Below, one piece after another: positions 19,432-45,505 of a DNA stretch of 64,000 bases (positions within the stretch are counted from its first letter, which is position 1; every line of letters starts with the position of its first letter). This stretch comes from Candidatus Omnitrophota bacterium. Its GTDB lineage: Bacteria > Omnitrophota > Gorgyraeia > Zapsychrales > Zapsychraceae. The stretch lies in the NCBI GenBank assembly GCA_020053475.1, contig JAGVNC010000028.1, forward strand, positions 551 to 64,550, given 5' to 3'. A program made the translations under genes and the position numbers. The notes beneath the pieces are model-generated. The model saw only the letters and a program-made list of their open reading frames with translations, made no database searches and had not been told where the DNA came from.

Positions 19432-20223
19432 TTATACGCACGCAAAAGGCCGTTGTAAACGCGTGACATTTGTCGCACGGCCGGAACGTTCGTCGATGGC
19501 GACGACAACGCCGCACAACCTTACATCTTTTTCAGCAACGCCAAACCGGACGGGCATGCTTGTCAAAAATCGCTTGATAATTTTCTCCTTATCTTGACCA
19601 ATCACTGAATCGTAAGGCCCCGTCATCCCCAAATCGGTGATATAGGCAGTCCCTCCAGGCAAAATTTTTTCATCCGCGGTCTGGATATGCGTATGCGTGC
19701 CGACGACCGCAGACACTTGACCATCGATAAAATGCCCCAGCGCGTTTTTCTCGCTGGTCGTTTCCGCATGCATGTCCACAATAATGATCGGCGTTTTTTT
19801 TCTAATCTCACCGACAATTCGCTTCAGTTCTTCAAAAGGGCATTTGACCGCGTGGCGCATAAAAACGCGGCCCAACACATTCACAACCCCAACGTTGATC
19901 CCCGCCGCCGTTGGTTTAATGCACCAGCCCTTGCCGGGAACTCCGTCAGGAAAATTGGCAGGGCGCAGGAGAAAGGGTTCGACCGCAAGGGGCACTTCCA
20001 AGTCTTTTTGGTCCCAAACATGGTCTCCCAGCGTAATGACATCACAGCCTGCTTTAAAAAACTGTTTGGCTAAAGAAGCGGTTAGTCCGGAACCTCCTGC
20101 AGCATTTTCGCCATTCACCACGACAAAATCGAGAGAAAATTCTTTTTTAAGATCATTCAACAGGCTTTCCACCGCCAAACGTCCCGGACTCCCGACAACA
20201 TCACCAATGCACAAGATATTCAT
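19432..20223 (-). CDS. ymdB: YmdB-family metallophosphoesterase (2',3'-cyclic-nucleotide phosphodiesterase), 263 aa.
   Basis: MNILCIGDVVGSPGR...VVNGENAAGG... It lies immediately downstream of rny, which is the conserved rny-ymdB synteny. Confidence 0.8.
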   Translation of the reverse strand: MNILCIGDVVGSPGRLAVESLLNDLKKEFSLDFVVVNGENAAGGSGLTASLAKQFFKAGCDVITLGDHVWDQKDLEVPLAVEPFLLRPANFPDGVPGKGWCIKPTAAGINVGVVNVLGRVFMRHAVKCPFEELKRIVGEIRKKTPIIIVDMHAETTSEKNALGHFIDGQVSAVVGTHTHIQTADEKILPGGTAYITDLGMTGPYDSVIGQDKEKIIKRFLTSMPVRFGVAEKDVRLCGVVVAIDERSGRATNVTRLQRPFACV

Positions 20224-21797
20224 TATTTGGCAAACTCCACCGCGCGTTTCTCGCGCAAGACAATCACTTTGATCTGTCCGGGATATTCCATCTCCTGCTC
20301 AATTTTCTGACGGATTTCTCGGGCCAAAACGATGGCTTCGTCATCATTAATTTTATCAGGATCGACAAGGATACGAATTTCCCGGCCGGCCTGAAGGGCA
20401 TAAGATTTCTGAATGCCTTTAAATGAATTCGCGATTCTCTCTAAATTTTCCAATCGCTTAACATACGTTTCTAATGTTTCCGCGCGAGCCCCGGGACGCG
20501 CCGCACTGATCGCATCCGCGGCGGCCACCAACGGGCCATAGACCGTCTTGGATTCGATTTCTTCATGGTGTGACTCAACGGCATTGGCCACCTCTTCACG
20601 CTCACCATATTTTCGCGCTAAATTACCGCCAACAATCGCATGCGTTCCTTCATCAGGATCTTGGCTGGCGACTTTGCCGATGTCGTGCAGCAAACCGGCG
20701 CGCATGGCAATCTTCACATCCAATCCTAATTGCGAGGCGATCGATCCCATCAGCATGGCGACTTCTTTAGTGTGCGCCAATCCATTTTGCCCATAGCTTG
20801 TCCGGAATTTCAATTTGCCGACGAATTTCAACAATTCGGGGTGCATTCCATGAATGTCTAAATCAAAAGCTGCTTTTTCGCCTTCCTCCCTAATAATATT
20901 TTCCAATTCTTTTTTGGCTTTCTCAACGACTTCTTCGATGCGGCCCGGATGGATGCGCCCGTCCGCAATCAGGCTTTCCAATGCAATGCGCGCGGTCTCG
21001 CGGCGGAACATATCGAATCCGGAAATCGTGACCGCCTCGGGGGTGTCATCGATAATAATATCGACACCGGCCGCGGCTTCTAACGCACGAATGTTCCGGC
21101 CTTCGCGGCCAATAATGCGGCCCTTCATTTCATCGCTGGGAAGAGGGACCACGGTCACTGTTGAGCCGGCCGTATGTTCAGAGGCGCATTTCTGAATTGC
21201 CGAGCTAATAATAAGACGCGCCTTCTTTTCTGCCGTTTCTTTAATTTCCTCTTCTGACGCACGGATCCGTGTCGCTTTTTCATGCAAAAGCTCTTCATCC
21301 AGGCGAGACAAAAGAAGCTTTTTAGCATCTTCCTCCGAAAGAGAAGCAATTTTTTGAAGCCGTGCCTTTTCTTCTTCCACAAGGCGAGCTAATTCTTGGG
21401 ACTGCTTGACCACGCCTTCTTCTTTTTCTTGCAAAACAGTCAGCCGTGCACTGATGTCCTTTTCTTTCTTTTCTAATAAATCGACGCGCTTTTCAATATT
21501 TTCTTCTTTAAGCAACAACCTCTTTTCGGTTTCGGTAATTTCATCACGGCGCTGCTTTGTTTCGCGTTCAAAATCTTGGCGCAATTTAATGGCCAAGTCT
21601 TTGCCTTGTAAGTCTAAATCTTTTTTCCCTATTTCCGCTTGTTTTGACGCGGATTCCAATAAACGGCGGGCCTTTTCTTCACTGTCCTTTAATTTTTTAC
21701 CGACAAAAAATCCTCGCAAAAAATAACCTGCCAAAATAAGGGCGATCGCCAAAAATGATAAGGAAAAACTTTGAGTATATGCATTTGCTTCTACCAT
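20223..21797 (-). CDS. rny: Ribonuclease Y (N-terminal TM helix, coiled coil, KH and HD domains), 524 aa.
   Basis: KH motif IIGREGRNIRALEAAAGVDII and HD motif LLHDIGKV. Confidence 0.9.
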   Translation of the reverse strand: MVEANAYTQSFSLSFLAIALILAGYFLRGFFVGKKLKDSEEKARRLLESASKQAEIGKKDLDLQGKDLAIKLRQDFERETKQRRDEITETEKRLLLKEENIEKRVDLLEKKEKDISARLTVLQEKEEGVVKQSQELARLVEEEKARLQKIASLSEEDAKKLLLSRLDEELLHEKATRIRASEEEIKETAEKKARLIISSAIQKCASEHTAGSTVTVVPLPSDEMKGRIIGREGRNIRALEAAAGVDIIIDDTPEAVTISGFDMFRRETARIALESLIADGRIHPGRIEEVVEKAKKELENIIREEGEKAAFDLDIHGMHPELLKFVGKLKFRTSYGQNGLAHTKEVAMLMGSIASQLGLDVKIAMRAGLLHDIGKVASQDPDEGTHAIVGGNLARKYGEREEVANAVESHHEEIESKTVYGPLVAAADAISAARPGARAETLETYVKRLENLERIANSFKGIQKSYALQAGREIRILVDPDKINDDEAIVLAREIRQKIEQEMEYPGQIKVIVLREKRAVEFAK

Positions 21798-21866: not shown

Positions 21867-22424
21867 TTAATTGACAAGAACATGAGTCACGGCGACATCA
21901 TGGTCCTGGCGGGGAAGTTGCTCAACGATTTGAAAATCAAAGGCGAGACCTACAGTTGGAACGCTTGAAGGTAATTTTTCTAGAAATCGGTCATAGTAAC
22001 CCGCGCCTCGGCCCAAACGGTGGTTTTCTTTATCAAAGGCAAGGGCAGGAACAATAACCATGTCAATTTCATCAAACGTTAGAGGGCTGGATCCCGGGGC
22101 TTTTGGCTGGACAATGCCATAAGGCCCTGGTTCCAAACGACCTTCTAAATTTTCCAATAAAGTAGGAATCAATGTTCGTTGTTGTTGAAACACTCTAGGC
22201 AACCCTATTTTCTTTCCCATTTGGAATACTTTTTTCATCATGGAAAACGTCTCGACTTCCCCGTCAAAAGATGCATAAAACAAGATTAAAGATGCTTGTT
22301 CGAATTCCCGCATCTTAAAAAGCTTATCTTGAATGATCAAGCTTTTTGTTAATCGCTCTTCCTCCTTCTGATTTCTTAAAAGCGTTACGAGCCTTTCTCT
22401 AAGGATTTGTTTTCTATGTTTCAC
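21867..22424 (-). CDS. ygfA: 5-formyltetrahydrofolate cyclo-ligase, 185 aa (GTG start).
   Basis: Motifs GRGAGYYDRFL and DMVIVPALAFD of the 5-FTHF cyclo-ligase family. Confidence 0.8.
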   Translation of the reverse strand: MKHRKQILRERLVTLLRNQKEEERLTKSLIIQDKLFKMREFEQASLILFYASFDGEVETFSMMKKVFQMGKKIGLPRVFQQQRTLIPTLLENLEGRLEPGPYGIVQPKAPGSSPLTFDEIDMVIVPALAFDKENHRLGRGAGYYDRFLEKLPSSVPTVGLAFDFQIVEQLPRQDHDVAVTHVLVN

Positions 22425-22554
22425 TGAAACACTTCATTGTTAATGATTGTGGGTTACACAATTGGGGGTATCTTAGCATTTTTTAAAAAATTAGACAACA
22501 ATAAATTTAGGGGTATAAATACTTGTAAATTAATGAGATAGGGTGGAGGGAATC

Positions 22555-22745
22555 ATAAAAATCCCCGCCTGTGCCGTCGGAGCAGATAAGTGGTGAACCA
22601 GTTCACCAAGTGGGAGCCTCTTTAAGCTGTCCAAGGACAGCCTAAAAGATAAGCGATTGGCGGCTTATAAAAGCCGGCAATATGTCCCTTAACAAAAGTA
22701 TTGGTTCTTTTAATCATGCCCCTAACGTACACTGCAGGGATTTAA
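22555..22745 (-). ncRNA. ssrS: Candidate 6S-like regulatory RNA of about 190 nt. It has its own extended -10 promoter and 5'/3' ends that form an irregular closing stem of at least 20 bp. It is upstream of the ygfA (MTHFS) gene.
   Basis: Promoter TGaTATAAT (22750-22758, inside the 3' end of pheT). The predicted 5' end AAAUCCCUGC pairs with GCGGGGAUUU at the 3' end, followed by UUUUAUG. Three perfect internal hairpins lie at 22588-22603, 22626-22641 and 22657-22676. The conserved ssrS-ygfA synteny comes from established knowledge. Confidence 0.4.
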
Positions 22746-22780
22746 TCGGATTATATCACGGCTGGGAAGGAAATCCAGTT

Positions 22781-24814
22781 TTATCTAATCATGGCGCTGC
22801 AATCACGGGCAAGCGTTTGCACAAGGCCTTCATGGGCCGTATTGACTTCTTGTTCCGTTAGCGTGCGCTCACTGGACTGATAAATGAACGAAATAACGAT
22901 CCCTCGGCGGTCAGGGGCAATCTTTTCTCCTAAATATTGCTCAACAAAACGCACTTTGGACAAGATGGGAATGTGTTGTCGGTGGATTACATTAAGCACG
23001 TCTTGATAAAAAATGCTTTTGGGCACCGCCAAACTGACATCGCGAACAATCGCCGGATATTCTGATAAAGAAGCAAAAGGCGGTGGGGATTGAACTGTTG
23101 AATAAACAGCTTCTAAATCCAATTCGGCATAAAATACGTGGGGCTGTTTAATACCAAATTGCTGCAAAATTGTTTGATTGATTTTACCCAAAAACCCAAT
23201 GTGTTTGTCGTCATCCCGGATAACAGCGCCTTGCCTTGGCTCAAAGATAGGGAGCTCTTGCGGCTCGACAACCCACTGAGGATGTTGAATCGACCCGACA
23301 GACTCGATGAAAGCCCCTTTAAGATCGTAAACATCAACCTCTTCGCCCCCTTGCGGTTTCCGCCAATCTTGAGTACGAGTCCCCGCCATGATCATGGCTA
23401 GCGTTTCTCGCTCCCCTTCTTTCATATAAATCTTTCCTGTCTCAAAAAATTTTAAATCCTTTTCCCCATGATTCATGTTCATCTGGACAATCTTTAACAG
23501 GCTGGGGAATAACGAAGGACGCATCATCTCTTGATCTTGCGAAAGAGGGTTGACAACTCTTAGGCTCGGCAAATGATCTAATTTTGCTTTTGTTAAATCG
23601 CTACGATGGATCATCGAATAACTAACCACCTCATCAAATCCTTGGGCTTGGCACTGGATTTTTAATTGATTTCTAAGCTGACGCCTAGGATCGGGAGCAA
23701 CGTTCGTGGCGCTGATGCAAGGAAGCCGGGACGGGACCTCTTCATACCCGATGATCCTGGCAACCTCTTCCATCAGGTCTTCTTGGCCCACCACATCCCG
23801 GCGAAAAGACGGAGGGCAAACATGCCAGACGCCTTTGTCTCCTTTGTCGACGACAAAATCCAGGCTGGTAAAAATACGTTGGCATTCGGCAGAAGTCAGT
23901 TGTACACCTAAAAAAGAGTTGATTGCTTCGCATGATACAGAAATAACGGGTTTCTCCATGTGTTTTTTCCCGACACGGACGTCCGCCGCTTGGACCAACA
24001 ATCCCCCGGCGTTCTTTAAAATCAACATAACGGCGCGTTCGGCGGTTGTCTTCACGCTGCCGGGGTCGACCCCGCGCTCAAATCGATACGACGAATCGCT
24101 GCTTAACCCTAATTTGCGTGAAGCTCGACGGATAAGAATAGGGTTGAAATACGCGCTTTCCAATAAAATATTTTTTGTTTGGGCTGTCACTTCCGTGCCC
24201 TTGCCCCCCATAATCCCGGCAATGGCCACAGCCTGTCTTGCATCAGCAATGACCAAAATTGACGGATCAAGCGTGCGTTCAACATTATCGATTGTAACGA
24301 TTGTCTCGCCGGCGTGCGCCCGGCGGACAATGATTTTCTGGCCGCTTAATTTATCATAATCAAAAGCGTGCAAAGGTTGCCCTGTTTCCATTAAACAAAA
24401 ATTCGCGATGTCCACAACGTTATTAATGGAGCGGACCCCAATGCTTTTTAATCGTTTTGTCATCCAGAGCGGTGTTTTATCCATATCCACGCCTTCGATC
24501 ACGCAGGCGATGTACTGCTGGCATCCTTCTTTATCCAGGATCGTGACAGGGAATTTTTTTGATGGCCACTTGATTTTCGACAGGGGCGGAAATTCTTTTT
24601 TCTTCCCTAAGATAGCCGCCGCTTCGCGCGCTATCCCTAATACGCTTAAACAATCGGCGCGATTAGGGGTGACTTCAATCTCGAAAATCATGTCGCCATC
24701 GACCGAGTAAATGCGCTCCACTTCCATGCCGGCCATGCTGAATTTATGCGCCAGTGTTTTGCCGGGGATTCCGACGGCAACGTAATCTTTTAGCCAATTG
24801 AGACTTATTTTCAT
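22781..24814 (-). CDS. pheT: Phenylalanine--tRNA ligase beta subunit, 677 aa (short form).
   Basis: B3/4, B5 and FDX-ACB-like regions. Immediately downstream of pheS. Confidence 0.85.
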   Translation of the reverse strand: MKISLNWLKDYVAVGIPGKTLAHKFSMAGMEVERIYSVDGDMIFEIEVTPNRADCLSVLGIAREAAAILGKKKEFPPLSKIKWPSKKFPVTILDKEGCQQYIACVIEGVDMDKTPLWMTKRLKSIGVRSINNVVDIANFCLMETGQPLHAFDYDKLSGQKIIVRRAHAGETIVTIDNVERTLDPSILVIADARQAVAIAGIMGGKGTEVTAQTKNILLESAYFNPILIRRASRKLGLSSDSSYRFERGVDPGSVKTTAERAVMLILKNAGGLLVQAADVRVGKKHMEKPVISVSCEAINSFLGVQLTSAECQRIFTSLDFVVDKGDKGVWHVCPPSFRRDVVGQEDLMEEVARIIGYEEVPSRLPCISATNVAPDPRRQLRNQLKIQCQAQGFDEVVSYSMIHRSDLTKAKLDHLPSLRVVNPLSQDQEMMRPSLFPSLLKIVQMNMNHGEKDLKFFETGKIYMKEGERETLAMIMAGTRTQDWRKPQGGEEVDVYDLKGAFIESVGSIQHPQWVVEPQELPIFEPRQGAVIRDDDKHIGFLGKINQTILQQFGIKQPHVFYAELDLEAVYSTVQSPPPFASLSEYPAIVRDVSLAVPKSIFYQDVLNVIHRQHIPILSKVRFVEQYLGEKIAPDRRGIVISFIYQSSERTLTEQEVNTAHEGLVQTLARDCSAMIR

Positions 24815-28999: not shown

Positions 29000-29074
29000 T
29001 GGACCCGACAAGACTCGAACTTGTGACCTTTTCCATGTCAAGGAAACGCTCTAACCAAACTGAGCTACGGGTCC
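29000..29074 (-). tRNA. tRNA-Val (anticodon GAC).
   Basis: The reverse complement folds as a cloverleaf: acceptor GGACCCG/CGGGUCC, anticodon loop UUGACAU, T-loop UUCGAGU. Confidence 0.85.
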
Positions 29075-29150
29075 GGATTTAAATTCGAAATCCAAATCTC
29101 GAAATTCGAAACATCTGTTTCGTGCTTCCCCGGCCCGCGGCTTTTAGCCG

Positions 29151-29213
29151 TCCCCTGAAATCGCAGAGCGCTTTCGGGGATTAAATTCCAGAAAGGCTTT
29201 GCCTTTCATGGAA
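29151..29213. repeat. Triple-hairpin repeat element, copy 2, in inverted orientation, between tRNA-Val and tRNA-Leu.
   Basis: tcccctgaaatcgcagagcgctttcggggattaaattccagaaaggctttgcctttcatgga is about 85 percent identical to the reverse complement of copy 1. Confidence 0.65.
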
Positions 29214-29260
29214 CAAAGCGGCGGGGCGGGCGGATTTCGTATTGAGAATTTTTTTACACA

Positions 29261-29343
29261 TGGGCAAGGAGGGAGTCGAACCCTCACAGCCTTACGGCCA
29301 CAGGATTTTAAGTCCTGCGTGTATGCCATTCCACCACTTGCCC
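29261..29343 (-). tRNA. tRNA-Leu (anticodon UAA), class II with a long variable arm.
   Basis: Reverse complement GGGCAAGUGGUGGAAUGGCAUACACGCAGGACUUAAAAUCCUG...GGUUCGACUCCCUCCUUGCCCA, with anticodon loop CUUAAAA. Confidence 0.85.
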
Positions 29344-29449
29344 AGTAAAATCAGCGACCAGTGGTCAGTGCACAGTGATCAGAAAAGGAATATCGCGCAT
29401 GTTCGTATCTTTCTGGCCACTGACAACTGAACACTCTCCACTAAACTTA

Positions 29450-29521
29450 AGGCGCGAATCGGAATCGAACCGATGTATAGTGGTTTTGCAGACCACTGCC
29501 TTACCACTTGGCTATCGCGCC
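29450..29521 (-). tRNA. tRNA-Cys (anticodon GCA).
   Basis: Reverse complement GGCGCGAUAGCCAAGUGGUAAGGCAGUGGUCUGCAAAACCAC...GGUUCGAUUCCGAUUCGCGCCU, with discriminator U. Confidence 0.85.
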
Positions 29522-45428: not shown

Positions 45429-45505
45429 GACCCCATCGTCTAGCCTGGTCAGGACACAAGCTTTTCAAGCTTGCAGCGCGGGTTCAAATCCCGCTGGGGT
45501 CGCCA
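45429..45505 (+). tRNA. tRNA-Glu (anticodon UUC) with encoded CCA.
   Basis: GACCCCAUCGUCUAGCCUGGUCAGGACACAAGCUUUUCAAGCUUGCAGCGCGGGUUCAAAUCCCGCUGGGGUCGCCA, with anticodon loop UUUUCAA. Confidence 0.85.

Follow-up and report, generated by a model that had tools for sequence, protein, structure and literature searches.

A very likely 6S (SsrS) RNA gene with an extra hairpin, located 3' of pheT in a Candidatus Omnitrophota bacterium

The minus strand of the window, as we call the whole 64-kb stretch of Candidatus Omnitrophota DNA analysed here, very probably encodes a 6S (SsrS) RNA at positions 22558-22743. 6S RNA is a small RNA that mimics an open promoter and holds back the bacterial RNA polymerase. 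The gene described here is an ordinary member of this well-known family in a little-studied phylum, plus one extra hairpin of 30 bases. The original prediction had placed a candidate 6S-like RNA in the span 22555-22745, and this candidate is borne out by a match to the Rfam 6S family (RF00013), by a match to a covariance model derived from relatives, and by a comparative alignment in which the RNA is conserved, base changes compensate one another and the central bubble keeps a constant size. The flagged span does contain the RNA, but its best boundaries are 22558-22743 on the minus strand. What is new is the 30-nt insertion in the window RNA and the finding that 6S is anchored at pheT rather than at ygfA in the Omnitrophota. 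The locus is laid out as follows:

22781..24814, minus strand: pheT (Pfam B3_4, B5, tRNA_synthFbeta and FDX-ACB)
22750..22758, minus strand: extended -10 element of the promoter, TGATATAAT, whose end lies 6 nt before RNA position 1
22558..22743, minus strand: very probable 6S (SsrS) RNA gene, 186 nt (Rfam RF00013 and lineage model R1)
22655..22684, minus strand: 30-nt insertion, absent in 9/9 relatives and found once in the window
22557..22561, minus strand: U-run after the closing stem, read directly
21867..22424, minus strand: 5-formyltetrahydrofolate cyclo-ligase gene (ygfA/fau; PF01812, E = 4.6e-43), 133 nt past the RNA

Family membership and the window-specific insertion

When the 64-kb window is searched with Infernal, RF00013 matches over its full length (model positions 1-187), on the strand and at the coordinates that had been predicted, and the score of 46.5 bits lies just above the gathering score of 46.4. 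The margin is 0.1 bit only, and the local end of the Rfam alignment skips the apical domain; both RNA ends and the bubble match well, and the upper-case consensus blocks of the family are matched by the window RNA in the cmscan alignment. At gathering thresholds the whole window yields this one 6S/SsrS match and four tRNAs (the tRNA genes comprise a cluster of three at 29000-29521 on the minus strand and one at 45429-45502 on the plus strand). A low-stringency Rfam scan of 22300-22900 (E up to 10) returned, besides 6S, sub-threshold noise and no riboswitch or leader family; a twister-P3 hit at 18.6 bits, below its gathering score of 39.9, was discarded as noise.

Ten related loci (L001-L010) were collected by PheT homology, drawing on genome contigs, metagenome contigs and homologous proteins. 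One of them, the metagenomic L002, ends 109 nt past pheT without a 6S 5' block and was left out as uninformative. The nine informative relatives, whose PheT is 47-52% identical to that of the window, all carry an RF00013 match above threshold on the pheT strand, with scores from 48.1 to 75.8 bits (L001 64.0, L003 75.8, L004 48.1, L005 57.6, L006 50.5, L007 62.4, L008 56.1, L009 55.2, L010 54.7). A covariance model built from these nine relatives only, with an Rfam-type structure and with the window left out (R1), finds a single sense match in the 64 kb, at 22558-22743 on the minus strand, which scores 104.7 bits (E about 2e-24) compared with 27.8 bits on the opposite strand at the same site. 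Thus, both the 6S identity and the strand are fixed. A coding reading of the region was rejected, since no ORF is conserved across the ten RNAs: the longest ORFs begin at differing columns and share no common peptide.

Among the ten sequences (the window and the nine relatives), the window RNA has the lowest score with RF00013 as well as with R1, and it is the window-specific insertion that makes the one borderline and the other low. The window RNA measures 186 nt, compared with 146-159 nt in the relatives, a difference for which the single 30-nt insertion accounts. The core of the insertion is a 26-nt stem-loop at 22656-22681 (AUUG-C-CGGCUU-UUAU-AAGCCG-C-CAAU), whose stem has ten base pairs with a C/C mismatch and encloses a perfect 6-bp hairpin. 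It is placed between GGG-A and the apical stem and gives the upstream arm a three-way junction. The minimum free energy (MFE) fold and the consensus-constrained fold both contain it, and it leaves the flanking helices intact. The hairpin most probably protrudes from the upstream arm and leaves the arm itself undisturbed. A second copy of the inserted hairpin is absent from the 64-kb window, and hence it is not a dispersed repeat. The 109 nt past pheT in the truncated locus (L002:2253-2361) contain a hairpin, CCACGGCTTTTTAAGCCGTGG, that resembles the inserted one, CCGGCTTTTATAAGCCG, a likeness that may be due to chance.

Could the insertion mark a decayed or diverged 6S copy, in which a hairpin at the base of the upstream arm hinders polymerase binding while a canonical second 6S RNA is encoded elsewhere? 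Bacillus has two 6S RNAs, 6S-1 and 6S-2, and a degenerate copy would be in keeping with the low scores, with the absence of the insertion from every relative and with the 64 kb as the portion of the genome covered. We nevertheless deem this very unlikely, because every block that is invariant among the relatives is intact in the window RNA, the extended -10 promoter is perfect, the insertion is self-contained and leaves both flanking helices whole, and the gene occupies the orthologous pheT slot, which is the site of the only copy detected in each relative. A 6S gene with one additional hairpin remains the reading that we prefer.

Fold, covariation and transcription

The elements of the predicted fold, in RNA order from the 5' end except for the alternative hairpin, which is given last, are:

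22725..22743, minus strand: 5' strand of the closing stem (RNA 1-19), pairing with 22559-22577
22703..22707, minus strand: GAACC (RNA 37-41), pairing with GGUUC at 22595-22599 and aligned with Rfam 'GAgCC'
22689..22702, minus strand: 5' (putative template) side of the bubble, AAUACUUUUGUUAA, 14 nt in 10/10 sequences
22686..22688, minus strand: GGG (RNA 56-58), pairing with CCC at 22612-22614 in a short helix at the upstream bubble edge
22616..22654, minus strand: RNA 90-128, the apical (upstream) stem-loop, which contains a perfect hairpin at 22624-22643
22600..22614, minus strand: CCC (22612-22614) and the 3' (putative non-template) side of the bubble, ACUUGGUGAACU, 12 nt, with the invariant CCCAC block
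22559..22577, minus strand: 3' strand of the closing stem (RNA 167-185), with the ACGGCA and GCGGGG blocks
22591..22608, minus strand: alternative hairpin UGGUGAA-CUGG-UUCACCA, which forms with RNA 31-44 masked

The RNA begins with AAAUCCCUGCAGUGUACG at 22743 on the minus strand and carries CGGCACAGGCGGGGAUUUUUAUG at about 22554-22576, about 170 nt past its start, both as originally read. The irregular end-to-end helix of more than 20 bp that had been proposed between them amounts to 24 pairs in the consensus-constrained fold, arranged in four blocks of 10+4+4+6 with small bulges between: A1-C10 with G176-U185, G12-U15 with G170-C173, C17-U20 with G166-G169 and G22-A27 with U160-C165. The first block indeed comprises ten contiguous pairs, although one of them is a U.G wobble, and the second block, put forward as GUGU/ACAC, exists as four pairs but truly reads GUGU/GCAC, again with one U.G wobble. 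Three perfect interior hairpins were found where expected, at 22656-22681, 22624-22643 and 22591-22608. The whole adopts a rod-like order in which the closing stem is followed by the GAACC:GGUUC helix, a bubble of 14 + 12 nt, the GGG:CCC helix and the apical stem. The folding energy (MFE -75.8 kcal/mol) compares with -48.7 +/- 4.2 for shuffled sequences (z = -6.4), of which 0/200 are as stable. Imposing the consensus costs 0.7 kcal/mol (-74.7 vs -75.4 for the MFE), and in the unconstrained MFE fold the central bubble collapses into two strand-local hairpins.

Covariation was assessed over the ten sequences. In an alignment fitted to the model, which leans toward the structure, 91.5% of cells form standard pairs, a share that drops to 42-56% once the partners are shifted by 1-3 columns; both sides have changed in 17 of 43 pairs, and 0/500 shuffles reach the observed values. 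An unfitted alignment (MAFFT followed by RNAalifold) has compensatory changes in 16 of 38 predicted pairs, and these lie in the closing stem and the apical stem. Over the ten sequences, helix 1 is 92.9% paired with four pairs changed on both sides, the ACGGCA block of the closing stem being invariant and the GCGGGG block highly conserved (its second base is U in two relatives). In the apical stem, which RNAalifold predicts from the unfitted alignment as well, helices 4-6 are 87-100% paired and nine of 14 pairs have changed on both sides. Both the closing stem and the apical stem draw support from these patterns. The GAACC:GGUUC and GGG:CCC helices are nearly invariant (two of three pairs are fully so in the latter), so that covariation speaks neither for nor against them; on the plain alignment RNAalifold does not predict these two bubble-flanking helices and proposes CC:GG within the 5' strand instead. 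Our placement of both follows from homology to the Rfam consensus.

The claimed extended -10 element was recovered exactly, at 22758..22750 on the minus strand, while the window has a weak -35 that overlaps the pheT 3' end. TGnTATAAT is a rare motif, with four occurrences in the window when both strands are counted. Eight occurrences are present in the ten fetched loci, and six of these sit 7-17 nt upstream of the 6S 5' end; the remaining two (L009:1927-1935 and L010:1955-1963) are found a short way ahead of pheS, where they probably represent the pheST promoter. An exact extended -10 precedes 6S in seven of ten loci, the window included, and L009 has the near-match TGTTATCAT in the same place. 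No TGnTATAAT lies ahead of 6S in L003 or L007. In L007 (5043-5045) 6S starts 1 nt past the pheT stop with no promoter motif, and the 78-nt pheT-6S gap of L003 (5032-5109) holds a 14-bp inverted repeat, GTCATCAGACATCA...TGATGTCTGATGAC. These two arrangements suggest, at the level of sequence, that 6S may be processed from a pheST transcript in some lineages. Since the terminator scan of the window found no terminator between pheT and the RNA, read-through from pheST into 6S is also possible in the window. At the other end, the U-run said to follow the helix is present at 22557-22561 and is the probable 3' end, generated by termination or trimming; it escaped the terminator scan, the closing stem being long-range. 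About half of the relatives likewise have a U-run after the stem, and in L003 a separate intrinsic terminator lies 4 nt downstream instead. The conserved extended -10 element, the U-run and the terminator of the L003 orthologue lend indirect support to a discrete transcript of about 150-200 nt.

It is extremely unlikely that the region holds no RNA gene at all but a pheT terminator and REP-like or palindromic intergenic hairpins, with the RF00013 match as a false positive. Three perfect hairpins, a U-run and a score a mere 0.1 bit above the gathering score are what such a region might offer. However, the scan called no terminator-like site, the inserted hairpin is unique in the window, and a conserved promoter points into the element. 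The comparative data weigh in the same direction, with 104.7 bits at this site from a model of the relatives only, RF00013 matches of 48-76 bits at the same place in all nine informative relatives, and compensatory changes in the long-range stems. On these grounds we exclude such a scenario and retain the 6S RNA gene.

Gene neighbourhood in the Omnitrophota

The spacer between the pheT stop codon (TAA, 22783-22781) and the GTG start of the cyclo-ligase gene (22424) is 356 nt, exactly as predicted. This GTG lies in the loop of a 7-bp hairpin (GUGUUUC-AGU-GAAACAU, window 22415-22431, minus strand), and the 133-nt spacer past 6S is AT-rich with a weak TGcTAAGAT extended -10-like motif. The window PheT is 100% identical to one database protein and at most 52% identical to the others, of which the named ones are from Candidatus Omnitrophota/Omnitrophica. 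It has 677 aa and no tRNA_bind (B2) domain by Pfam; the best 120 PheT homologues have 660-691 aa with the same four-domain make-up and are from Omnitrophota where named. A PheT of reduced length therefore looks typical of the phylum.

The linkage of 6S RNA to ygfA is well known (PMC9130861) and had been a mainstay of the original prediction. It is present in the window, but across the phylum pheT, and not ygfA, is the stable neighbour: 6S lies 1-78 nt past the pheT stop in 10/10 loci, whereas ygfA comes directly after 6S only in the window, L003 and L010. In the other seven (L001, L004-L009) the slot directly after 6S is taken by a gene for an mgsA/rarA-type AAA+ ATPase (MgsA_C domain), which is absent from this slot in the window, L003 and L010. 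The mgsA-type gene stands between 6S and ygfA in L001, L004 and L006-L009, and in L005 it is followed by other genes, with no ygfA within the 3 kb fetched. Past ygfA, the window encodes rny (RNase Y) and ymdB (19432-21797, minus strand), and the order pheS-pheT-6S-(mgsA)-ygfA-rny-ymdB recurs in relatives.

There is a negligible chance that the element acts in cis, as a leader or regulatory 5' UTR for the 5-FTHF cyclo-ligase gene downstream, instead of being an independent RNA. Its position would allow this, since it lies on the same strand, 133 nt upstream of ygfA, with no canonical terminator called between. However, the mgsA-type gene intervenes in six relatives, and in L005 it follows the RNA with no ygfA in the 3 kb fetched; in L003 the RNA and ygfA are separated by an intrinsic terminator; a search at E up to 10 brought up no riboswitch or leader family; and the full length of the element is matched by a family of trans-acting RNAs.

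The 6S RNA of Aquifex aeolicus is listed at pheT in an ncRNA table (PMC4227106), and hence the pheT-6S neighbourhood is not unique to the Omnitrophota. This RNA belongs to a distant phylum, its release has been proposed to involve a 'central bulge collapse' helix, and it is likened to the window RNA here by locus listing alone. In the literature searched, we found no earlier report of a 6S RNA in Omnitrophota.

Compared with one another, the other Omnitrophota 6S RNAs (L001, L003-L010) and the window RNA share the slot 3' of pheT, the closing stem sequence, the bubble size and TGnTATAAT. The relatives differ in being 146-159 nt long and unbranched, in mostly having mgsA before ygfA and, in L007 and L003, in having no promoter motif. 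E. coli SsrS and B. subtilis 6S-1 (RF00013) belong to the same length class and have the same rod with a large central bubble. The blocks CCCUGC..GUGU.CG, GA.CC, GGG, CCCAC, GGUUC, ACGGCA and GCGGGG are common to the family and the window RNA, as are the potential for a 3'-strand hairpin once the GA.CC helix is opened and the 5-formyl-THF cyclo-ligase gene as a neighbour (PMC9130861); the 30-nt extra hairpin and the resulting three-way junction in the upstream arm set the window RNA apart from the RF00013 consensus. Another structured RNA that binds RNA polymerase and has a shape related to 6S is Ms1 of Actinobacteria (PMC9130861). It differs in that it binds core polymerase and not the holoenzyme and is restricted to Actinobacteria, and nothing in the window RNA, which matches 6S over its full length, suggests that it is an Ms1.

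Central bubble, predicted release and significance

The central bubble is found in 10/10 sequences, its 5' side measuring 14 nt and its 3' side 12-14 nt. Its helix on the closing-stem side has GAACC as 5' strand, which is nearly invariant in the ten sequences. In E. coli, pRNA synthesis begins at U44 of 6S RNA, and in the Rfam consensus alignment G37-U44 of the window RNA (GAACCAAU) stands opposite G37-U44 of E. coli (GAGCCGAU). From this alignment only, we predict that pRNA synthesis starts at U44 (22700) and that the pRNA reads 5'-AUUGGUUCUUUUAAUC..., with GAACC as the first part of its template. Taking U44 as +1, the bubble extends from -11 to +3, like that of a real open complex, the closing stem corresponds to the downstream duplex, with its 5' strand inferred, by analogy with E. 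coli, to mimic downstream DNA, and the insertion falls at about -15/-16.

The alternative hairpin at 22591..22608 draws the UUC of the GGUUC strand into its stem, with the two G's staying in the loop, and structure modelling predicts that it represents the rearranged state after pRNA synthesis. A hairpin of the 3' bubble strand is predicted in 10/10 sequences, at 1.3 to 7 shuffle SD below the shuffle means, and it engages the GGUUC strand in nine of the ten. The hairpin sequences differ in L001, L004 and L005; the exception is L008, in which the hairpin pairs CCCACG with GGGG just upstream of GGUUC. Such a hairpin is in line with the release mechanism described for 6S-1 of B. subtilis and 6S of E. 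coli, of which PMC4227106 gives a summary.

Drawing on these two systems, we propose that the RNA would be transcribed from its own promoter, starting at about 22743 and ending at the U-run past the closing stem, and that, as a mimic of an open promoter, it would occupy the channel in which the housekeeping sigma-70 holoenzyme of RNA polymerase binds DNA, so sequestering the holoenzyme when growth slows. Upon a rise in NTPs, polymerase would copy the 5' side of the bubble from about U44, giving a pRNA that would unzip GAACC:GGUUC and allow the 3' strand to snap into the UGGUGAA/UUCACCA hairpin, after which the complex of RNA and polymerase would fall apart.

It is possible, though unlikely, that the inserted hairpin at about -15/-16 is an innovation with a function of its own and not a bulge that is tolerated, a scenario to which we relate the partial processing of 6S from the pheST transcript. 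If the insertion is functional, this would be a branched 6S RNA whose third arm alters the contact of the upstream arm with sigma regions 3 and 4 or else brings in a further factor. Likewise, if the adjacency of pheT and 6S, terminator-less and in some relatives promoter-less, means processing from pheST, the supply of 6S would be tied to the expression of the translation apparatus. Our understanding of 6S RNA itself is unchanged by these results. They do allow a 6S gene to be annotated with confidence in a lineage of uncultured Omnitrophota. For the phylum, in which the general Rfam model works near its threshold, they provide a seed alignment of ten sequences with its model, and pheT, rather than ygfA, as the stable anchor for locating 6S. 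The branched variant offers a natural experiment on the changes that are tolerated in the upstream arm of 6S RNA.
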